Of a DNA stretch of 64,000 bases, positions 41,979-64,000 are shown in pieces. Position numbers and translations under genes: made by a program. The stretch is from Escherichia coli. Its GTDB lineage: Bacteria > Pseudomonadota > Gammaproteobacteria > Enterobacterales > Enterobacteriaceae. The notes under the pieces were generated by a model. That model worked only from the letters and a program-made list of their open reading frames with translations. It had not been told where the DNA came from and made no database searches. The DNA lies in assembly GCF_017348835.2 (NCBI RefSeq), contig NZ_CP071375.1, one strand, 5' to 3'. Each line of letters begins with the position of its first letter. The first letter of the stretch is position 1.

Positions 41979-42075
41979 ACGTACACTGGCGGATGTGGCA
42001 TAAACGCCTCATCCGCCCTGGACAAATGGTACGATCGGTAGGCCTGATAAGACGCGTTAAGCGTCGCATCAGGCA
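41979..42075. repeat. REP elements
   Basis: GGCGGATGTGGCATAAACGCCTCATCCGCC and GGTAGGCCTGATAAGACGCGTTAAGCGTCGCATCAGGC. Confidence 0.8.
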
Positions 42076-49918: not shown

Positions 49919-53167
<3,249 letters not shown>

Positions 53168-53195
53168 AGGCAGTACATTAAAACAAGGAGCGGCA

Positions 53196-54107
53196 ATGTA
53201 TTACGGGTTTGATATTGGTGGAACAAAAATTGCGCTTGGCGTGTTTGATAGCGGTCGGCAGTTGCAGTGGGAAAAGCGGGTGCCGACACCGCGTGACAGC
53301 TATGACGCATTTATAGATGCAGTGTGTGAGCTGGTAGCTGAAGCTGACCAACGTTTTGGCTGTAAAGGTTCTGTCGGCATCGGTATTCCGGGAATGCCGG
53401 AAACAGAAGATGGTACGCTGTATGCCGCCAATGTCCCCGCTGCCAGCGGTAAACCGCTGCGTGCCGACCTGAGCGCACGTCTTGATCGCGATGTACGCCT
53501 TGATAACGATGCCAACTGTTTTGCCCTTTCAGAAGCCTGGGATGATGAATTTACTCAATATCCACTGGTGATGGGGTTGATTCTCGGCACCGGCGTTGGC
53601 GGCGGGCTGATTTTCAACGGCAAACCGATTACCGGTAAAAGCTACATTACCGGCGAGTTTGGCCATATGCGTCTGCCGGTTGATGCGTTAACCATGATGG
53701 GGTTGGATTTCCCGTTACGCCGCTGCGGCTGTGGTCAGCATGGCTGCATTGAAAATTATCTGTCTGGTCGCGGTTTTGCGTGGCTGTATCAACACTATTA
53801 TCATCAACCGTTGCAGGCTCCCGAAATTATTGCGCTTTATGATCAAGGCGATGAGCAGGCAAGGGCGCACGTTGAGCGTTATCTGGATTTATTAGCGGTT
53901 TGTCTGGGAAATATCCTGACCATTGTTGACCCTGACCTGGTCGTCATTGGTGGTGGCTTATCGAATTTCCCGGCAATCACAACGCAACTGGCGGACAGGC
54001 TGCCTCGTCATCTCTTACCTGTAGCTCGTGTTCCGCGCATTGAACGCGCGCGCCACGGTGATGCGGGAGGAATGCGTGGTGCAGCCTTCCTACATCTAAC
54101 CGATTAA
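53196..54107 (+). CDS. nagK: N-acetyl-D-glucosamine kinase
   Basis: ROK-family kinase; start moved to ATG 53196 ([15 protein letters not shown]), 303 aa. Confidence 0.9.
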
Positions 54108-54122
54108 ACAACAGAGGTTGCT

Positions 54123-54944
54123 ATGCTGTCGCGTCGGGGTCATCGGTTAAGTCGTTTTCGTAAAAATAAACGCCGCCTGCGCGAGCGTTTGCGTCAGCGT
54201 ATTTTTTTCAGAGATAAAGTGGTGCCGGAAGCAATGGAAAAACCAAGAGTACTCGTACTGACAGGGGCAGGAATTTCTGCGGAATCAGGTATTCGTACCT
54301 TTCGCGCCGCAGATGGCCTGTGGGAAGAACATCGGGTTGAAGATGTGGCAACGCCGGAAGGTTTCGATCGCGATCCTGAACTGGTGCAAGCGTTTTATAA
54401 CGCCCGTCGTCGACAGCTGCAGCAGCCAGAAATTCAGCCTAACGCCGCGCATCTTGCGCTGGCTAAACTGCAAGATGCTCTCGGCGATCGCTTTTTGCTG
54501 GTGACGCAGAATATAGACAACCTGCATGAACGCGCAGGTAATACCAATGTCATTCATATGCATGGGGAACTGCTGAAAGTTCGTTGTTCACAAAGTGGTC
54601 AGGTTCTCGACTGGACCGGAGACGTTACCCCAGAAGATAAATGCCATTGCTGCCAGTTCCCGGCACCCTTGCGCCCGCACGTAGTGTGGTTTGGCGAAAT
54701 GCCACTCGGCATGGATGAAATTTATATGGCGTTGTCGATGGCCGATATTTTCATTGCCATTGGTACTTCGGGGCATGTTTATCCGGCGGCTGGGTTTGTT
54801 CACGAAGCGAAACTGCATGGCGCGCACACCGTGGAGCTGAATCTTGAACCAAGTCAGGTCGGTAATGAATTTGCCGAGAAATATTACGGCCCGGCAAGCC
54901 AGGTGGTGCCAGAATTTGTTGAAAAGTTGCTGAAGGGATTATAA
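54123..54944 (+). CDS. cobB: NAD-dependent protein deacylase (sirtuin) CobB
   Basis: Sirtuin motifs [14 protein letters not shown] and HGEL; long isoform listed, an internal Met (MEKPRVLVL) would give the short isoform. Confidence 0.9.
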
Positions 54945-54957
54945 AGCAGGAAGCATT

Positions 54958-54988
54958 GCCTGATGCGCTACGCTTATCAGGCCTACAA
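54958..54988. repeat. REP element
   Basis: GCCTGATGCGCTACGCTTATCAGGCCTAC between cobB and potD. Confidence 0.75.
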
Positions 54989-55099
54989 GCGGACCACAAT
55001 ACCAACGAAAGAGCGGGATAAAACTTTACTGTCCTGACTCATTAGCCACATCCTTGCTAACTAAAAAACGGGCGGTAATACCACCGCCCGCTTGCTGAA

Positions 55100-56146
55100 T
55101 TAACGTCCTGCTTTCAGCTTCTGATAATACTCTTCATAAATGCTGCTGGCTGCGCCAACGTCATTCTGCCATTCGCCATTTTTAATGGTTTCAGCATCCG
55201 GGTAGAGCGTCTTATCGTTCGCCACTTCTGGACTTAACAGCTTACGCGCCGCAAGGTTTGGCGTTGGATAACCGATAGTTTCAGCAACCTGTTTTGCCAC
55301 ATCCGGGCGCAGCAGGAAGTTGATCAATTTCAGCGCGCCTTCTTTGTTTTTGGCATTTGCCGGGATCGCCAGGCTGTCCATCCAGAATATGCCGCCTTCT
55401 TTCGGCCACACCACGTCAATAGGCGTACCCGCCTGGCGTGCAACGAAAGCAGAACCGTTCCAGATCATGCCGAGGTTAACTTCGCCTTCCATGTACGGGT
55501 TAGCCGGGTTATCGGAGTTAAACGCTGCGACGTTTGGCATCAGTTTTTTCAGCTCGTTATATGCAGCTTCAATCTCTTTCGGATCGGTGGTGTTACCGGA
55601 GTAGCCCAGCTTACGTAGCGCCATCTGGAACACTTCACGGGCATCGTCGGTCAGCAGCAGGCTGCCTTTGTACTCAGGCTTCCACAAATCGGCCCAGCTG
55701 GTGACAGATTTCGGATCCACCGCATCACCGTTAACGCCAATCGCCGTCGCACCCCAGATATACGGAATGGAGTAATCGTTATTCGGGTCAAACGGCTTAT
55801 TGAGCATGTCTGGATCGAGATTGCTGAAGTTCGTTAACTTCGACTTGTCGATCTTCTGGATCATCCCTTCTTTACGCATTTTATCGACGTAATAGGTTGA
55901 AGGAACCACCAGGTCATAGGCACCGTCTTTGTACGTTTTCAGCTTGGCATACATGGTTTCGTTCGACTCGTAAGTCGAATAGATAACCTTAATACCGGTT
56001 TCTTTGGTGAACTGTTCAAGCAGTCCTGGCGGCACGTACTCGGTCCAGTTGTAGAAATACAGCGTGTTGTTGTCATCGGCGTGAGCGGCGCTCATGCCCA
56101 GTGCCAGAGCACCCGCCGCGAGCAGGTGGCGTGACCATTTTTTCAT
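55100..56146 (-). CDS. potD: spermidine/putrescine ABC transporter periplasmic binding protein
   Basis: 348-aa ORF with signal peptide, recognised as PotD. Confidence 0.94.
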   Translation of the reverse strand: MKKWSRHLLAAGALALGMSAAHADDNNTLYFYNWTEYVPPGLLEQFTKETGIKVIYSTYESNETMYAKLKTYKDGAYDLVVPSTYYVDKMRKEGMIQKIDKSKLTNFSNLDPDMLNKPFDPNNDYSIPYIWGATAIGVNGDAVDPKSVTSWADLWKPEYKGSLLLTDDAREVFQMALRKLGYSGNTTDPKEIEAAYNELKKLMPNVAAFNSDNPANPYMEGEVNLGMIWNGSAFVARQAGTPIDVVWPKEGGIFWMDSLAIPANAKNKEGALKLINFLLRPDVAKQVAETIGYPTPNLAARKLLSPEVANDKTLYPDAETIKNGEWQNDVGAASSIYEEYYQKLKAGR

Positions 56147-56937
56147 TTAACGTCCCCTGTGTTACCTTTCGTTTTATCACGAGCAATAAGCTGGCTGGCA
56201 ATAACCATCACCAGCGACAGCACCAGTAATATGGTTGCCAGCGCGTTAACTTCCGGCGATACGCCGACTTTGACCATCGAATAAATTTTTAACGGCAGAA
56301 TTTCATAACTCGGCCCAGTGACGAACGAAGAAACAACCACATCGTCCATCGACAGGGTAAAGCTTAACACCCAGCCCGCCGCCACCGCTGGCATTGCCAG
56401 TGGCAGAATGATTTTTCGCAGAATGGTAAATTCGCTGGCACCGAGATCTTTCGCCGCTTCCAGCATTCGCACGTCAAAACCTTTCAGGCGCGAATACACC
56501 GTCACCACCACAAATGGCAGGCAGAAGGTGATATGCGAGAACAGCAGCGACCAGAAGCCAAGCTGAATACCCAGCAGCATAAACAGCACCAGCAGCGAAA
56601 TTGCCATCACGATATCTGGTGACATCATTACCACAAACAGCATTCCGCTAACGAACGGCTTACCACGAAAGCGATAACGGTACAGTGCAACTGCCGTCAG
56701 TGAACCGATAAGCGTAGCAAACGTCGCTGAAAACACCGCCATCGTCAATGAATGCTGAGCTGCCTGCAACAGACTGTCGTTGTTCATCAGCAGGCTATAC
56801 CATTTAGTGGTAAAACCCTGCCAGTTGATGCCAAAGCGCGAGCTGTTGAAAGAGTTCACAATCAAAATAATGATTGGAATATACAGGTACGCGTAGATAG
56901 CGGTCATAAAACCGCCGCGAAGCAGTCGACCGATCAT
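56143..56937 (-). CDS. potC: spermidine/putrescine ABC transporter permease
   Basis: 264-aa ORF recognised as PotC; 4-nt overlap with potD. Confidence 0.94.
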   Translation of the reverse strand: MIGRLLRGGFMTAIYAYLYIPIIILIVNSFNSSRFGINWQGFTTKWYSLLMNNDSLLQAAQHSLTMAVFSATFATLIGSLTAVALYRYRFRGKPFVSGMLFVVMMSPDIVMAISLLVLFMLLGIQLGFWSLLFSHITFCLPFVVVTVYSRLKGFDVRMLEAAKDLGASEFTILRKIILPLAMPAVAAGWVLSFTLSMDDVVVSSFVTGPSYEILPLKIYSMVKVGVSPEVNALATILLVLSLVMVIASQLIARDKTKGNTGDVK

Positions 56938-56969
56938 TCGAGTTCCACCTTTTTATTCATAAGGCGGGA
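56934..56969 (-). pseudogene. potB: 3'-terminal remnant of potB, cut off by the prophage junction
   Basis: Minus-strand frame ending in TGA that overlaps the potC ATG (ATGA) encodes ...SRLMNKKVELE; this matches my recollection of the PotB C-terminus, and the frame is open for only 37 codons (to 57047) with no membrane-permease body upstream. Confidence 0.45.
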
Positions 56970-57245
56970 CACTTTCAGGTTTTTGAATTTATTCAATTTT
57001 TTCCTTTCTCCAAAATCTCTCCAAAACTTTTCCCCAAAACAGGACCACGCATTTTACAGCATTTTTATACATGGGTGAGCTTACTAGGACAGAAAAGTAT
57101 TCCAGTTTGTTTACCCATATCGCTTTCCGAATGAGATTTTTGATGTGATTTCTTCGTGTTGAAAAACCACATAATGTGGTATTAGAATTAGCTATCAAGA
57201 TTCACTTTGAATCCGTTTTGAATCCCATTGAACTCAGGAGTGACT

Positions 57246-57449
57246 ATGAAGCGTAAAAGTGTGGCTTTGTTACAAGCCATTGGCTCGGTTATAGCCCTGA
57301 GCCCGACGGTCGTTTCAGCAAATGGCATGCCAGCGAATCCAGTTTCCGCTTTGCGTCAGGATGCTGCGGCTATCAGAGGCGATTTCCAAAAAGCAATGGT
57401 ATCCGTTAACGTTGAAAAGCTGAACAATGCCAGATCAAAAAGAAAGTGA
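57246..57449 (+). CDS. small secreted protein, unknown function (prophage cargo)
   Basis: 67 aa, MKRKSVALLQAIGSVIALSPTVVSA is a signal peptide with a likely cleavage site after VSA; AGGAG Shine-Dalgarno 5 nt upstream; the listed ORF starts at an in-frame TTG at 57228. Confidence 0.55.
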   Translation: MKRKSVALLQAIGSVIALSPTVVSANGMPANPVSALRQDAAAIRGDFQKAMVSVNVEKLNNARSKRK

Positions 57450-57534
57450 GAACACCAAACTCACTTGTGAATAACAAAAGGATAATGAACTGGTTTCTCG
57501 AGTAATCGAAAATCCAGAGGTCTTAAACAGGGTT

Positions 57535-57894
57535 TTGGATAGTCCGCAGGTGCGGGCTATTGTTTGCCAGCATTTTCAGGGGCCTGTTCCGCCACCTTCA
57601 ATGCTTAAAAAGTATGATCAACTGGTGCCTGGGCTTGCAAATCGACTTGTTGAGTTGACCGAAAAAGAGCAGGCTCATCGCCATAAAACAGTGGCTGATA
57701 GCATTGATATTGCCAGAGATGGTCAAACAAAGGCTTTTTGGTTGGCAATATTGATCATCTTAGCTGCCACTGTCTTTGGCGTCATGGGGGAGACAGTTCT
57801 TGCCGGAACTCTCGTTTCAATAGATCTTGTTGCATTGGTTACGGCATTTATTGTTGGAAAACATTATTCTAAGCAGGAACCTGATCAAGATTAG
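57535..57894 (+). CDS. DUF2335-like two-transmembrane-helix membrane protein (prophage cargo)
   Basis: N-terminal PVPPPSMLKKYDQLVPGLANRLVELTEKEQAHRH followed by two hydrophobic helices; start uncertain (TTG 57535 or ATG 57601), no strong Shine-Dalgarno. Confidence 0.5.
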   Translation: MDSPQVRAIVCQHFQGPVPPPSMLKKYDQLVPGLANRLVELTEKEQAHRHKTVADSIDIARDGQTKAFWLAILIILAATVFGVMGETVLAGTLVSIDLVALVTAFIVGKHYSKQEPDQD

Positions 57895-57902
57895 TCTCCG
57901 AA

Positions 57903-57925
57903 CCCCGGTTGATGCCGGGGTTTTT
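57903..57925 (+). terminator. rho-independent terminator after the cargo cassette
   Basis: CCCCGG-TTGATG-CCGGGG followed by TTTTT, 9 nt after the stop codon. Confidence 0.8.
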
Positions 57926-57970
57926 ACACTAGCAAAGCAATATCAACATTTTTCAGCTGCATTTATTTCG

Positions 57971-59089
57971 TCAAACAACCAATTTAACCCATTCCTGACC
58001 ACGAGTATCGTTATAACGATCGGTGGTTGCTTGGACTTTATGTCCCAGTAATGTTTTTGTATCAATACCCTGCGCGCGGTACAGTCGTTCTGACAGGGAG
58101 CGTTGTTCATGAAATGTTGGCGGAGTTTTTCCTGCTGGTGGAGTTATCCCAGCCAGATCCCGTGCTTTGGCAAAGTAGTCGCTCAGGTTGTCTTTACTCA
58201 TCGGCTTTGGTTGTTTCTGGTGCCGACTATGGATTAGATATGGACTTAATATTCTGTCTCGGCACCCATCAATAACTTCTTTTAACGTTATCCCAATGGC
58301 ATCACAGCGTAGTGTAAGCGGTAACGCCAGACGCATTCCGGTTTTTCCCTGGGTGATATGCAAGTGTTCGTTCCACACATCTGAAAAACGCATGTGGCAA
58401 ATGTCATCACGGCGCTGACCAGTAACAATCGCAAGAAGCATTGCGTTACGGATAAAGTGTTTTTCAGGCGTTGCGTTGTAAATTTTTTGCCAGTCTTCCA
58501 GGGTGAGCCTGGCTCTAGTTACTTTAGGGATCGGTTTACGGGTAGCCTCCGGAGGATTCCATCCAGGAGGAACTTCCCCTGCATGCTGTGCTTCTTTATA
58601 AATATCAACCCATAATCCACGATTTACTCTCGCTGTGCTGACCATGTCTTTATCCAGCCACTCATCCAGTATTAATGCAAAGTCTCTTACTTCCAGTTCT
58701 TTCAATGGGTGGTTTCCCAGACGGGAAACCAGGTATGCAGCCATTCGGGCTTTTTCTTTGTGAGTTGTAGCTGCAATATCTCCATTTTTCAGTCGCGTGT
58801 CCTGTATTTTCAGATATCGATCAACCCATGCCTTTAATCTGATACCCCGACGCTTTGTTGCTGACGGACTTTCATCAATTTTGCGCATGAAATATTCAGC
58901 CTCTGCTGCAGCTATTCGCTGATTGGCTGTGGAAGCGATTTTTTCTGCCTTACCTTTGTCTGTTCCGAGCCCGTGAAATTTTCCAGTCACAGGGTTTTTA
59001 TACTGGTAGTAAACTCTGCCAGTTCTGCGATCAAATTTTTCGTAAAGTCCGGCTACGTCAGTGCTGTTTTTTCGTGGCCTCGGTGACAT
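57971..59089 (-). CDS. int: phage integrase (tyrosine recombinase, lambda Int family)
   Basis: 372 aa; lambda-Int-like C-terminal catalytic region (VTGQRRDDICHMRFSDV, PPTFHEQRSLSERLY, LLGHK, conserved Tyr in TDRYNDTRGQEW). Confidence 0.9.
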   Translation of the reverse strand: MSPRPRKNSTDVAGLYEKFDRRTGRVYYQYKNPVTGKFHGLGTDKGKAEKIASTANQRIAAAEAEYFMRKIDESPSATKRRGIRLKAWVDRYLKIQDTRLKNGDIAATTHKEKARMAAYLVSRLGNHPLKELEVRDFALILDEWLDKDMVSTARVNRGLWVDIYKEAQHAGEVPPGWNPPEATRKPIPKVTRARLTLEDWQKIYNATPEKHFIRNAMLLAIVTGQRRDDICHMRFSDVWNEHLHITQGKTGMRLALPLTLRCDAIGITLKEVIDGCRDRILSPYLIHSRHQKQPKPMSKDNLSDYFAKARDLAGITPPAGKTPPTFHEQRSLSERLYRAQGIDTKTLLGHKVQATTDRYNDTRGQEWVKLVV

Positions 59090-59336
59090 GAGTTAAAATC
59101 TCCTTCAGTGCATCATCATCGCCAGTATGAATTTCCGGCGCAATTCCTGTTTCACCAGGTCCAACAAATACTGCTCGGCGATCTATCAGCCAACGCCCAC
59201 GAATTTTTTGTGGTCTTGGAACGATGTATCCTAGTTTTCCGTATTTCACCAGGGTAGTGTTTGTTATTGGGAGACTGAACCGTTTTGGCTTCCACTCATC
59301 GAGCGTTATCAGGTACTGTTCGCTCATGGCTATCAC
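59058..59336 (-). CDS. xis: excisionase (Xis)
   Basis: 92 aa; YLITLDEW...GRWLIDRRAV resembles lambda Xis (MYLTLQEW...); 32-nt overlap with the int start as in lambda; start could be Met1 or Met4. Confidence 0.75.
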   Translation of the reverse strand: MIAMSEQYLITLDEWKPKRFSLPITNTTLVKYGKLGYIVPRPQKIRGRWLIDRRAVFVGPGETGIAPEIHTGDDDALKEILTHVTEATKKQH

Positions 59337-59388
59337 TCCGGAACGCGCCAGTTGCAGAATACCAACGACAACTGGCGACGGTTGAACA

Positions 59389-61860
59389 TTAAAAATCAGC
59401 CTGACTCGGGATCAGTTTTTGCCAGATAACTGAAACGTATTTTGCCTGATAACGGGCGTCATCAAGTGCATTATGGCGCTCACCTTCGAATGGAATAGCC
59501 GTTCTGGCATCGAAGTCTATGGCTTTCCCCAGCTCAACGATTGTGCGTACATCGCGATCGTTGTAGTAACGCCACGGGCAGGGGATCCCCTGCCGTTCGT
59601 ATGAACGGCGCAAAATCGTGTTATCGAAGTTGGCTCCATTTCCCCAGACCTGAACAAAAAATTCACCGGAGTTTTCGTCGATAAATTCCCGCAATTGTAA
59701 CAGTGCATCATCTAACGGGATTTCATCGGTCATAATGGCAGATTGCGCTTCGCGTGATTGCTTAAGCCACCATTTAATGGTGTCCCGATCAATGACTCCG
59801 CCAGCAGTTTCCAGATCGATAGTCTTACTAAATTCCGGTCCCATATCTCCGGTTTGCGGATCGAAAAATATTGCACCTATTGAGATGATCGGGGCATCAG
59901 GATTTTTTCCCATGGTTTCAAGGTCGATCATTAGATGGTCACACGTCCTGCTGGTGGATGTGATTTCTTGATGACCGTTCACCTTAATTGAGTGATCTGC
60001 CGTCTCGCCAGTTTCACTATCGCTGGCATGATGCTGATTGCCGCCAGTGTTCTCCTTGTGTGGATGTTCAGCGCCTTCCATTTTCTCCGGATCATCTTCC
60101 TGAACTTCAACCTGATACTCTTCATCGAATGTTTCCTGGTATGTTGCGTCGCCCATCACCGCGCCACAATCAGGGCAGTTGCCGCCGCCGGTCTGACCGC
60201 AGGCGGTGCAGGCTTTTTCCACTTCCTGTTGCGCCACTGGTTCAGGCTGTTTCGTTTCTGGCTCGTTTTGTAACGCATTTGGGCTGTTTTGTTCCGCTTT
60301 TTGGTAGTTCCGTTCCGATTCATGCTGGTTCTGGTTTACAGAATCGCGGGTCTGGATCCCCTTAACCCATTTCGGATCATTCGGGTCGCTAATCCCTGCA
60401 ACAAATTCTCCGCGAGAGGCAGCAAGCAACTTATCGGCGTCAGGCTGGCTGATATTGGCTGCCTGCATAATTTTGTTTACTTCGTCAGCGGTAACTTTTA
60501 CCGGCTCTGGTTGTGCGGTCGTGTCAGATGCACCAGTATTTTGTTGTGAACCTGAGTATGTACTGTTTTTGCGGGCGAAATATTCTTCTTTCGTGATTTC
60601 AGTAGCCCCGGCAGCCAGTGCCTTATCCAGACCAGAAAGTTTGTTTGCGCGACCGTATTTTTCGCCATCCTTGTCGGTGAAGAGGAAGTAGAACGGCCCC
60701 TCACGCTCTACAGATGGTTCGACTTCCACTTTGCATTCGGTTTTTTCGTTGTCCGGAATTGCCGTTTCCACTGCATCAGTTTCTGGTACTGGCGACGAGA
60801 GAGTATCAGTTGCGCTCTGATTTGTTCCTTCATCTTCAAACACGCCCTTTGTAGTCAGGTATTCAGTAATGTATTTGTTCAGTGCCACAGGGTCTTTGTG
60901 AATGTCGATCGGACGTTCACGGACAAGGCCAAAAATAGTCTGGCGGTCGTAGCGAAGGGCATCAGGCTGTTTGCGCATTGATGCCGAGATACGCTTCCAG
61001 TCTTCGCGGTCGTTGTCGATAACTTCATTTTTTGCCCAGCGATGGATGCTGCCGTCAATGTTTCCGGCATCCACATCACCAGGCCAGAGAGCGTAGGCCA
61101 GTTCGTCATCCAGTGTTTTCCATGTCTGCTTGTATTCGCGATGAATGGCAGCAATGACCGGGCTGATTTTTCCTGTTGAATTTTCAGTGTGCTGTTGATT
61201 GGTTCTGGCGCGGGCGAGATCAACAACAGACGTGTATTTTCCGGTTTCCTTGCGTTCACCTTCGCGACGTTTTTTCCAGATGCGCATCTCTGCCTGAATT
61301 TCGGGCCATTTGGCACCAGGCTTACATTTATGCTTAACCCACCCGATGGCATGCAGCTTAAGCTCCGGATACATGGCGTTAACTTCTGGCATTTTCATCA
61401 ACGCTTCAACGATATGTCCGTCGAATGTTGCCATGTCTTCCTGCAACAATTCCTGTGCGCTAATAACCATATCAACGGTGATGTTTTCACATGTGTCGAA
61501 CTTAACCATGACAGCGTTCTGTACTTCAGGGGCCAGCTTGTCAAAAGTGACGTTCATCGGATCTGATTCAGTCTCAACCGGAACAAAGGAAGCAGACTCC
61601 TCATCCCAGCGGTTTTCCTGCATATATTCAGCATCCCATGAATCGAGGGCAGGGCGGGGTATGCCAGGTTTATCCTCGCAGATAATAAATTTATAAGCGC
61701 AGTCCTGAGCAGCCGGATAATGTTCCAGGAATTGCCAGTGAAATTTTGCTCGAGCACGGCGTTCGTCGCCAGCTTCAATAGCTGTGGCTACAGCCACAGC
61801 GCCTTCTTCCCTTGTTGCCAGTTCGTCAGGAATGGCGGCGCAAATAAAGACTTTACTCAT
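59389..61860 (-). CDS. phage exonuclease of the family often annotated exodeoxyribonuclease VIII, with C-terminal DnaQ-like DEDDh 3'-5' exonuclease domain
   Basis: 823 aa; C-terminus carries Exo I (MIDLETMG), Exo II (VWGNGANFDNTIL) and Exo III (HNALDDARYQAKY) motifs; central acidic/Gln-Pro-rich segment with Zn-ribbon-like CTACGQTGGGNCPDCG; sits in the exo/recE slot of a lambdoid early-left operon. Confidence 0.75.
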   Translation of the reverse strand: MSKVFICAAIPDELATREEGAVAVATAIEAGDERRARAKFHWQFLEHYPAAQDCAYKFIICEDKPGIPRPALDSWDAEYMQENRWDEESASFVPVETESDPMNVTFDKLAPEVQNAVMVKFDTCENITVDMVISAQELLQEDMATFDGHIVEALMKMPEVNAMYPELKLHAIGWVKHKCKPGAKWPEIQAEMRIWKKRREGERKETGKYTSVVDLARARTNQQHTENSTGKISPVIAAIHREYKQTWKTLDDELAYALWPGDVDAGNIDGSIHRWAKNEVIDNDREDWKRISASMRKQPDALRYDRQTIFGLVRERPIDIHKDPVALNKYITEYLTTKGVFEDEGTNQSATDTLSSPVPETDAVETAIPDNEKTECKVEVEPSVEREGPFYFLFTDKDGEKYGRANKLSGLDKALAAGATEITKEEYFARKNSTYSGSQQNTGASDTTAQPEPVKVTADEVNKIMQAANISQPDADKLLAASRGEFVAGISDPNDPKWVKGIQTRDSVNQNQHESERNYQKAEQNSPNALQNEPETKQPEPVAQQEVEKACTACGQTGGGNCPDCGAVMGDATYQETFDEEYQVEVQEDDPEKMEGAEHPHKENTGGNQHHASDSETGETADHSIKVNGHQEITSTSRTCDHLMIDLETMGKNPDAPIISIGAIFFDPQTGDMGPEFSKTIDLETAGGVIDRDTIKWWLKQSREAQSAIMTDEIPLDDALLQLREFIDENSGEFFVQVWGNGANFDNTILRRSYERQGIPCPWRYYNDRDVRTIVELGKAIDFDARTAIPFEGERHNALDDARYQAKYVSVIWQKLIPSQADF

Positions 61861-61953
61861 TTTGTTTTAACCTCATGACAGATTTAAGGATGAACAAATC
61901 CCTGCCATTGCTGGCATATAAGAATGAAACCGGATATTTATTACGGAACTGTT

Positions 61954-62145
61954 TTAAAGACCTGCCGGGATTTCGATATTATCCTGGTGAATAACTTTAT
62001 CGACCGGGTAACAGTTACCGGGAATTTTCTGTTCGGTTGCTGCAGTCATACACTCCTGCATTGTCCTGTGAACACTGACTGCAATATCAACTGGCTCTCC
62101 GGAAACAAGAAAAACTGTCAGAACAAGTGCAAATGCTGTATTCAT
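61954..62145 (-). CDS. YdfD-like small membrane protein
   Basis: 63 aa from Met19 of the listed ORF (MNTAFALVLTVFLVSGEPVD...); its ATG overlaps the dicB-like stop as ATGA; hydrophobic N-terminus; resembles my recollection of Qin prophage YdfD. Confidence 0.55.
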   Translation of the reverse strand: MNTAFALVLTVFLVSGEPVDIAVSVHRTMQECMTAATEQKIPGNCYPVDKVIHQDNIEIPAGL

Positions 62146-62330
62146 TGCCAGCATCCTTTTTGTATCGGACGTAAACGGGCCAACATTGAAAGAATGCATA
62201 TTTTATTTAATAGCTCCCGTTCGTGTTTTCTCTTGTTAATGGCATCTTCAGTAAATACAGGGTTACTGATAGTGACACCAATTTCAAAACAACCTTCAGA
62301 CGTATTAACGTTTGGTAATAACGTTTTCAT
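62142..62330 (-). CDS. dicB: DicB-like cell-division inhibitor
   Basis: 62 aa from the internal Met of the listed ORF (MKTLLPNVNTSEGCFEIGVTISNPVFTEDAINKRKHERELLNKICILSMLARLRPIQKGCWQ); GAGGG Shine-Dalgarno 8 nt upstream; closely matches remembered DicB; lies directly downstream of the DicF-type sRNA. Confidence 0.65.
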   Translation of the reverse strand: MKTLLPNVNTSEGCFEIGVTISNPVFTEDAINKRKHERELLNKICILSMLARLRPIQKGCWQ

Positions 62331-62499
62331 TATCGCGCCCTCAACAATGAGTTTTGTGATGCGGTGCCTGGTGCCTCCAGGTGACGTTAACCAGTTAACA
62401 ACTAACGCCGGATACAGAGAATCCAACCATAACACTGTTTTTGGTTTTAACTGTTCCGCGTGCGCTTAGCCGCATTCACCGCATCACAAAATTCACTTT

Positions 62500-62557
62500 A
62501 AAAAGGGCGGCAGAGCAGTCACGGAGTAAAACTGATACCGCCAAACGTCACCAGAAA
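62500..62557 (-). ncRNA. dicF: DicF-type small RNA with 3' terminator
   Basis: Minus strand reads TTTCTGGTGACGTTTGGCGGTATCAGTTTTACTCCGTGACTGCTCTGCCGCCC followed by TTTTT; I recognise this 53-nt sequence as DicF; position immediately upstream of the dicB-like gene fits. Confidence 0.75.
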
Positions 62558-62819
62558 ATTGATAACAGAGGGCGTTGCAGCGGGGTTGTCACTTAAGCGT
62601 ATGGTCAACCTGACAACCCGGTGTCCTCAACGGGGGAAGGAATAACCCCGCCATACTTACCGCCGCGCCATTTCGCGGATTGCCACAACCAGAAGCGCAC
62701 GGTCGAAGAAATTTAACGACAAGACTTATATGCAAAGGGATCTCGCCGTGCGCTTTCGTGTTATGCCCTGACTTTTCAGGGTAAATTAACCTGTGGAAAC
62801 CTGTTTTTACTGGCGCTAA

Positions 62820-63059
62820 TCAGTTAGCGTTTCTGGCTAACCAGCGATGCGCGGCAGCTTCGGTTTTAAACGTTTTACTTTTGGTATACGTCATCGCGGT
62901 AAACGTGCCGTCCTGATTGGGAAACACGCCACATACCAGAGATTCGTTGTTGCCAAGCTCGATAGTATCCATGCTGACCTCATTTCCCCTTAACGCTGGG
63001 GTAGCGGAACTAAAAACCTGCTGCGCTGTTATACAAAGTGTTCCCGCCGTCATGTTCAT
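62820..63059 (-). CDS. DUF1391 protein (YdfA / YdaF-like)
   Basis: C-terminal 50 aa (MDTIELGNNESLVCGVFPNQDGTFTAMTYTKSKTFKTEAAAHRWLARNAN) resemble the prophage YdfA/YdaF family; an internal ATG at 62972 has a good Shine-Dalgarno (GAGG, 6 nt), so the true product may be the 50-aa form. Confidence 0.55.
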   Translation of the reverse strand: MNMTAGTLCITAQQVFSSATPALRGNEVSMDTIELGNNESLVCGVFPNQDGTFTAMTYTKSKTFKTEAAAHRWLARNAN

Positions 63060-63153
63060 ACGCCTCGGGCTGGCTACTTAATCCCTGACCACAGCCGGGT
63101 AACTCTAGGTATTGCCCTGTATTGTGTGGGACGGGATGGGTTGGTATGGGAAA

Positions 63154-63195
63154 ACTATAGGAAATGCCTAATTGCTTGTCAATAGGCCATGCCTA
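63154..63195 (-). promoter_or_regulatory. PL-like early-left promoter with repressor operators
   Basis: Minus strand TTGACA (63182-63177) -17 nt- TATAGT (63159-63154); flanked by TAGGA-AAT-GCCTA (63158-63170) and TAGGC-CAT-GCCTA (63183-63195), the same TAGGC-N3-GCCTA motif found at the PR-like promoter. Confidence 0.6.
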
Positions 63196-63290
63196 ATGAT
63201 TTGGGTGCGACCTAATAGGTGATGGTTTGTGGGAGAGATAGTAGGAGTTAACTAACGGGAACTAGGAATTTCCCGTCGGACCATATAAGT

Positions 63291-63767
63291 TTAAGTTCCT
63301 GTCTTGGTGATGTTCTGGCTTTTCCGTTTTGATTCTTGATTTTTCAGATAGTTAGCTACCTTCATTTCCATTGCGGCAATGTAGGCGCGAACGTCATGAT
63401 CAACCCAACTAGGCTCCGTAGCATTTCCAGATAAGAGGAAAGCCACAATTGCTCTTTTTTCATCAGAGGCGGCTTGATAAAGGCTGTTTATGTCTAAAAG
63501 TTCACTTTTTGTATCTGAAGTGGATGGGGTTGGTATGGGGTATTCGTTAAGCCCCCAATGCTCTGGACCAACCACATCAGAAAAGAAACGCCATAGTTCT
63601 GGAAGTTTGTCTTTACTTATCGAACCTTTCTTAATCCAGTCATGGATTGATGGTGGTTGGACTTTGAAATGACGTGCGATTTCCGCCTTTGATTTGACGG
63701 CTCCTGATGCAATTTTTTTGTTAATGGCCTGCTCTATCGCTCGGCCTAAGTCTTTACCACTAAGCAT
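63291..63767 (-). CDS. prophage repressor (CI-equivalent; RacR-like)
   Basis: 158 aa; HTH-like segment SKAEIARHFKVQPPSIHDWIKKG; located between PL-like and PR-like promoter/operator regions and divergent from the Cro-like gene; AGGAG Shine-Dalgarno. Confidence 0.65.
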   Translation of the reverse strand: MLSGKDLGRAIEQAINKKIASGAVKSKAEIARHFKVQPPSIHDWIKKGSISKDKLPELWRFFSDVVGPEHWGLNEYPIPTPSTSDTKSELLDINSLYQAASDEKRAIVAFLLSGNATEPSWVDHDVRAYIAAMEMKVANYLKNQESKRKSQNITKTGT

Positions 63768-63794
63768 TGCTTAATAGTCTCCTATGCGCATCGC

Positions 63795-63864
63795 GTTAGG
63801 CAATCCCTACTCTCGAAGCGTTAGGCATAGCCTATTGACAATCGCATTAGGCTAAGCCTAATAT
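63795..63864 (+). promoter_or_regulatory. PR-like promoter with three operator sites
   Basis: TTGACA (63835-63840), 18-nt spacer, TAATAT (63859-63864); operators TAGGC-AAT-CCCTA (63797-63809, imperfect), TAGGC-ATA-GCCTA (63822-63834) and the 17-bp perfect palindrome ATTAGGCT-A-AGCCTAAT (63846-63862) overlapping spacer and -10. Confidence 0.6.
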
Positions 63865-63891
63865 TATTGTGTGTTTTTTGGAGTTCATTCG

Positions 63892-64000
63892 ATGAAAAAA
63901 GATAACTATTCATTCAAACGAGCTTGTGCTGTTGTCGGTGGGCAATCAGCAATGGCTAGGCTTTTAGGTGTATCTCCTCCAAGCGTAAATCAATGGATCA
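63892..64000 (+). CDS. Cro-like / YdaS-like HTH protein (5' part only; truncated by window end)
   Basis: MKKDNYSFKRACAVVGGQSAMARLLGVSPPSVNQWI, HTH motif, GGAG Shine-Dalgarno about 9 nt upstream, divergent from the repressor. Confidence 0.6.
   Translation, partial: MKKDNYSFKRACAVVGGQSAMARLLGVSPPSVNQWI

Follow-up and report, generated by a model that had tools for sequence, protein, structure and literature searches.

Does the direct adjacency of cobB and potD in an Escherichia coli chromosome record a site that never held any genes between them, or the loss of genes that were once there? The question is raised by a stretch of 64,000 nucleotides (the window, to which all positions given below refer unless a fetched locus is named). 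A preliminary description of this stretch had stated that cobB and potD are separated only by a REP element in a spacer of 155 bp, that K-12 has two small genes (ycfZ and ymfA) at this position, and that the difference is a strain-level indel, which marks the window as not being K-12 itself. It left open both the direction of the indel and the spread of the allele. Here, we present evidence that the spacer very probably goes back to one old deletion of ~1.29 kb, whose scar it is, and which came after an older insertion of the two genes in Escherichia and was then passed on by vertical inheritance and recombination.

The cobB–potD spacer in the window

The region of the window around cobB and potD belongs to the E. 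coli core chromosome. The cobB ORF (54123–54944, + strand) codes for a 273-aa Sir2-family NAD+-dependent deacylase (Pfam SIR2, E = 4e-54), and the potD ORF (55100–56146, − strand) codes for the 348-aa periplasmic binding protein of the spermidine/putrescine ABC transporter (Pfam SBP_bac_8, E = 3.5e-39). Both carry these names, cobB (WP_000952736.1) and potD, in the annotation of the genome nearest to the window, that of the pig isolate PE164 (NZ_CP114128.1), which is colinear with it and 99.99% identical. The two genes are convergent, with the cobB stop codon ending at 54944 (+ strand) and that of potD occupying 55100–55102 (− strand), and the spacer (54945–55099) is, thus, exactly 155 bp long. 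While the adjacency stands to the base, the description of the spacer holds only in part. The REP is there and fills about 29 of the 155 bp, but it is not alone: the spacer also contains the truncated 5′ end of ymfA, ribosome-binding site included (54992–55055 in all) and the intrinsic terminator of potD (55066–55093).

The REP elements of E. coli are imperfect palindromes of ~30–40 bp of the type GCC(G/T)GATGCG...CTTATC(A/C)GGCCTAC, ending in GTAG/CTAC. The element at 54958–54986 (+ strand), GCCTGATGCGCTACGCTTATCAGGCCTAC, is a palindrome of this consensus type and folds as the expected hairpin, with 8+2 pairs; its sequence is matched once in the window against zero matches expected by chance. 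It is extragenic and situated at the 3′ end of a gene, beginning 13 bp past the cobB stop codon. It is also dispersed across the chromosome: on account of the REP that it contains, a 1156-bp query matches E. coli genomes at several places each (median, 9), and the REP by itself accounts for a 33-bp match (query positions 510–542, hit H30) at unrelated chromosomal loci of other genomes. Downstream of cobB in K-12 there is a pair of REPs, of which the element in the window is the sole survivor; the second member of the K-12-type pair, which is inverted, is absent. A further consensus-type REP is found elsewhere in the window, at 42038–42074 (− strand) in the ndh–ycfJ intergenic region.

The 5′ end of ymfA was recognized at 54992–55042 (− strand) by its similarity to intact alleles. 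It consists of an ATG (55040–55042) and about 16 codons, MSQDSKVLSRSFVGIV..., whose frame continues to a TAG at 54983–54985, inside the REP, to give an ORF of 19 codons. The ribosome-binding site, AAGGA, was read from the sequence at 55051–55055 (− strand) and is identical to that found upstream of ymfA in K-12. In BLAST comparisons, the remnant together with its upstream region displays 95–97% identity to the ymfA 5′ end of the strains EF7-18-58 and CX15. Over its first 30 coding nt there is no difference from the CX15 allele, and comparison of the remnant with the closest of the sampled intact alleles shows 3–4 mismatches in 26 positions. A full-length ymfA product has ~153 aa, with the DUF3592 domain at residues ~40–112 in K-12, and the part coding for DUF3592 is entirely deleted in the window. 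This stretch is a remnant, a dead stub of 19 codons, rather than a gene. Alignment with K-12 and with the intact alleles found no ycfZ-derived sequence in 54945–55099.

The predicted terminator of potD (55066–55093, − strand) was recovered by a terminator scan and by folding. It begins 6 nt past the potD stop codon and comprises a 12-bp GC-rich stem with a 4-nt loop, followed by a T run (TTTTTT), as is typical by sequence of rho-independent terminators. Its fold has an energy of −20.3 kcal/mol (z = −4.7), and 0 of 200 shuffled sequences were as stable. The terminator is identical in K-12, where it lies between potD and ymfA. An Rfam scan of 50000–64000 found no RNA family in the spacer, the only hit being DicF in the neighboring prophage.

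Loss of ycfZ and ymfA in the lineage of the window

The corresponding region of K-12 MG1655 (b1120–b1123) is colinear with the window in its flanks, which are 98% identical, and has the same first REP, the same potD terminator and the same ymfA ribosome-binding site and start codon. In addition, K-12 has the second REP, ycfZ (b1121; TPM domain, 262 aa) and a full-length ymfA (b1122; DUF3592, 153 aa), with both genes on the potD strand. The K-12 gene order as first described was, thus, accurate, and K-12 lacks the direct cobB–potD adjacency that the preliminary description had named as its own refutation. The pairwise alignment against the K-12 interval that it had proposed shows that homology breaks off at 54994 and is taken up again at 55020, K-12 having ~1.3 kb more. 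The difference is, as had been claimed, a strain-level indel and serves as a valid means of telling the window apart from K-12.

The two sequences also differ at the end of cobB, where a 1-nt indel at the stop codon makes the K-12 gene 6 codons longer (279 versus 273 aa). In the interval 54939–54962, the window has TTATAA where K-12 has TTAAAA, and the K-12 frame continues with KAGSIA to a stop within the REP. Contigs carrying YcfZ clusters of E. marmotae and E. albertii (labels that are the source names of the protein clusters) have the 273-aa form, and the CobB proteins of most other genera align only to residue 273. On the strength of this distribution, the 279-aa CobB of K-12 looks derived.

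With respect to the spacer itself, the window might represent the ancestral empty site, with K-12 and most other E. coli having gained ycfZ–ymfA by insertion. That an insertion happened at some time is indicated by the low GC content of the pair (43% compared to 51–52% for cobB and potD) and its restriction to Escherichia; moreover, cobB and potD are direct neighbors in the majority of the other Enterobacterales sampled. However, the window retains the ymfA ribosome-binding site, its ATG and ~16 codons, and is therefore not an empty, never-occupied site. Further, the pair is present at the locus in contigs whose YcfZ cluster is source-named as E. marmotae or E. albertii, which dates the insertion to before E. 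coli. Given the ymfA remnant, we reject insertion in K-12 as the explanation of the difference between K-12 and the window, for which we hold it to be highly improbable; it is true only of the older, genus-level event. Because the translation start of ymfA survives, the direction of the change is that of a deletion in the lineage of the window.

Anatomy of the deletion and its likely mechanism

Alignments by BLAST against the intact non-K-12 alleles of EF7-18-58 and CX15 end at 54994 on the left and at 54999 on the right, and 1290–1291 bp are missing relative to intact strains. The lost stretch comprises the second, inverted REP, the whole of ycfZ, and ymfA codons ~17–153, i.e., ~90% of the latter gene. 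The junction occupies 54992–54998. In both manual and global alignments, the join features a microhomology of 3 bp, GAC on the + strand or GTC on the strand of the genes (54992–54994), which is common to both sides. The 4 nt beside it (CACA, 54995–54998) match neither parental sequence exactly, which amounts to an irregularity of 2–4 nt. We found no repeat or IS end at the break points and no REP at the break point on the ymfA side.

This signature does not appear to be that of site-specific or homologous recombination. We infer that the deletion brought codon 16/17 of ymfA up to a position 8 bp beyond the first REP, probably through microhomology-mediated illegitimate recombination or replication slippage. 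The event left both neighbors whole, cobB with its stop codon and one REP, and potD with its own terminator. Since cobB, potD and the potD terminator are intact, the deletion is predicted to be without effect on the neighboring genes.

Clusters of REPs are known join points for some rearrangements. The deletion could, in principle, have been made by REP/BIME-associated recombination, either as an exchange between REPs or through cleavage by a REP-associated tyrosine transposase (RAYT), and the left break point, being 8 bp from a REP and between both REPs of the K-12-type pair, is where such a process might leave it. The right break point, in contrast, lies inside the ymfA coding sequence, without a REP or a REP-like palindrome, and the closeness of the left one to a REP may be a coincidence, given that REP sequence makes up most of this 120-bp intergenic region. 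A second, independent deletion allele also speaks against the involvement of these elements, in that it keeps both REPs and breaks elsewhere. This allele, found in 15 genomes (Z0117EC0005 and 14 others), resembles that of the window in having cobB beside potD through the loss of ycfZ–ymfA. It differs in its 213-bp spacer, in which both REPs remain, as does the very end of the ycfZ coding sequence (its last few codons), and ymfA is lost up to its ATG. With its different break points, it represents a separate event. REP–REP recombination was rejected because no REP-like sequence is present at the ymfA-side break point in the three intact alleles examined, and we allow a REP-associated origin of either kind only a very slim chance.

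Distribution of the deletion among E. coli

In searches with the 1156-bp query, cobB and potD were found to be contiguous in 576 of 5426 complete E. coli genomes, i.e., in about a tenth of them. The prospect that the arrangement is an artifact of assembly or sampling peculiar to the window is negligible: these 576 complete genomes were assembled independently, PE164 is 100% identical over the 1156-bp query and 99.99% identical over 63 kb, and we found nothing to count in favor of such a reading, which is refuted by these matches. A 50-bp probe confined to the junction was matched in at least 390 complete genomes, a lower bound given the 28-bp word requirement of megablast. These are mostly O157:H7, O55:H7 and O145 strains; the other carriers are scattered isolates from humans, pigs, poultry and wild birds with genomes of 4.7–5.0 Mb. 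An 80-bp probe spanning the junction was dropped because, under a coverage rule of 80%, it did not tell the alleles apart: the intact ymfA of non-K-12 type extends over 83% of its length. The allele of the window is, hence, neither rare nor private.

In common with the window, the O157:H7, O55:H7 and O145 genomes have a spacer of 155 bp, a junction that agrees at every base, and the 273-aa allele of cobB. Within the remnant, the window differs from O157:H7 by one base (A instead of G at 55004), and over the surrounding 1.1 kb it has diverged from O157:H7 by ~0.6%. Not one base of the junction, GGACCACAATACC, differs between the window, O157:H7 C1-057, 81EVA and ECN24. In 81EVA it is paired with the K-12-type cobB end, and in the window, C1-057 and ECN24 with the 273-aa type. 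Taken by itself, the identity of the junction argues for one event, with the allele having later moved between backgrounds or the flanks having recombined afterwards. As the identical junction is combined with different flanking alleles, entry into unrelated backgrounds was most likely by homologous recombination. Following the deletion, the allele may, then, have been passed on vertically in the O55:H7/O157:H7 and O145 lineages, and may have spread to unrelated backgrounds, including this pig-strain-like genome, via homologous recombination through the conserved flanking genes.

The pair is also found in states of decay short of its removal. In EF7-18-58 and CX15, where both genes are still present, ycfZ is a pseudogene, with an internal stop in the former and a frameshift in the latter (1298–2086 of the fetched locus L003 and 1290–2077 of L004). 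Many truncated YcfZ clusters were likewise recovered in a search of a protein collection. At the N-terminus of ymfA, we observed two clearly diverged allele classes, the K-12 type MSQDSKVFFRIFLG... versus MSQDSKVLSRAFLG... Natural E. coli can clearly dispense with the ycfZ–ymfA pair, which is decaying by several routes.

Was this loss favored by selection rather than being neutral? The basis for such a reading is the existence of at least two independent deletions, the inactivation by point mutation elsewhere, and the presence of one allele across unrelated backgrounds, including the enterohemorrhagic O157/O55/O145 strains; nevertheless, we regard it as unlikely. If it were true, the two envelope proteins YcfZ and YmfA would carry a cost in certain niches, perhaps because phages or colicins target them or because the host recognizes them. 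More broadly, the convergent cobB–potD gap would, under the same reading, be a recurrent cargo slot across Enterobacterales.

Probable origin of ycfZ–ymfA in Escherichia

Using a degenerate potD DNA pattern and one genome per species, we fetched 47 loci from Enterobacterales, one of them from E. coli and 46 from other species. The E. coli locus has ymfA and ycfZ, and neither gene was found at any of the others. In ~25 of the 46 others (including Chimaeribacter), cobB lies within roughly 300 bp of potD; several of the 47 loci end before cobB and are uninformative on the gap. In Pantoea, Serratia, Shimwellia, Cedecea and others, cobB and potD are convergent across a spacer of ~70–300 bp, as they are in the window. 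Unlike the window, these are primary empty sites, in which no ymfA or ycfZ sequence could be detected.

In other species the gap holds cargo of a different kind. A dlt-like D-alanylation cluster, assigned by eye on the basis of translated ORFs, is found in Enterobacteriaceae bacterium RIT691 and Enterobacter sp. CC120223-11, an amidase-like gene in Dryocola and Buttiauxella warmboldiae, and a gene for a 174-aa membrane protein in several Buttiauxella. In the fetched loci, the cargo occupies 3687–8700 of L013, 2051–7457 of L018, 10050–11655 of L053, 365–2036 of L047 and 11874–12587 of L019. The cobB–potD gap looks like a recurrent insertion slot in Enterobacterales.

A shared-word search of 5.8 billion proteins, a method that would miss distant TPM-domain relatives, found no relatives of YcfZ below ~68% identity. 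Where the YcfZ clusters are source-named, the names are E. coli, Shigella, E. albertii and E. marmotae, with none from outside Escherichia/Shigella. The contigs with the clusters source-named as E. marmotae and E. albertii have the order potABCD–ymfA–ycfZ–cobB–nagK, i.e., the pair is at the same locus. Salmonella, Citrobacter, Klebsiella and E. fergusonii are not among the loci recovered, and the node at which ycfZ–ymfA was inserted is only bracketed. A plasmid origin was also considered and rejected: tblastn of YcfZ against plasmids gave 10 matches, all to non-mobilizable E. coli “plasmids” of 0.3–4.9 Mb, which are probably mislabeled chromosomal sequence, and this search yielded no trace of a true plasmid source.

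The best reading of these patterns is that ycfZ–ymfA entered a primary cobB–potD junction by horizontal insertion early in Escherichia and was secondarily lost in parts of E. coli. The loss found in the window is the commonest of these, and it superficially restores the gene order that preceded Escherichia.

A neighboring prophage in potB

The homology of the window to K-12 ends at 56959. From 56960 up to 64000, and running past the end of the window, there is a lambdoid prophage inserted in the last ~8 codons of potB, with a core of about CCTT(C/T)TTATTCA and its integrase gene at 57971–59089 (− strand). The potB gene is a published site of prophage integration in O157:H7 and O145:H28 (PMC9997748, PMC7067040). 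O157:H7 C1-057 shares with the window a related lambdoid prophage in potB, two genes away, with a closely related integrase. In C1-057, the integrase gene lies 167 bp from potC. The window has ~900 bp (57067–57966) between the prophage end and the integrase gene, holding a hypothetical ORF (57228–57449) and a DUF2335 gene (57535–57894), and this segment is absent from the prophage end of C1-057. The prophage of the window also features a full-length gene for the antisense sRNA DicF (62505–62556, − strand; Rfam RF00039, 76.7 bits), beside genes of the dicB/ydfD type.

In PE164, the prophage measures ~53 kb, carries genes for NleG-family and EspW type III effectors, and splits potAB from potCD; potB survives there with an altered C-terminus (...NKKATEIDD). 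PE164 has a 1.3-kb IS3-family element at window position ~62978, which is missing from the window; aside from this element, ~6 single-base differences separate the two over 63 kb. A contig with a YcfZ cluster source-named as E. marmotae (GCA_036175105.1; positions 1–1150 of the fetched locus L058) lacks potB beside potC and has a Fic-domain gene in its place, which suggests that potB serves as an integration site beyond E. coli as well.

Functional implications

The Pfam domains recognized are TPM in YcfZ and DUF3592 in YmfA, and both proteins are annotated in K-12 as putative inner-membrane proteins. A literature search, including by the identifiers b1121 and b1122, found no paper assigning a function to either of them. 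A virulence microarray for E. coli already includes b1121 (ycfZ) as a marker that is variably present among strains (PMC2749873), and YmfA is present in only a part of the E. coli pangenome (PMC8788219).

The arrangement in the window is ordinary and already known, as it is the standard one in all the published O157:H7, O55:H7 and O145 genomes examined. The scar offers a typing marker of a size suited to PCR, with ~1.4 kb from cobB to potD in K-12-like strains against 155 bp in O157:H7-like strains and some others, and it has very little importance beyond strain typing. A mildly useful point for the biology of E. coli is that two uncharacterized inner-membrane proteins are dispensable and are undergoing repeated loss in natural populations of this species.
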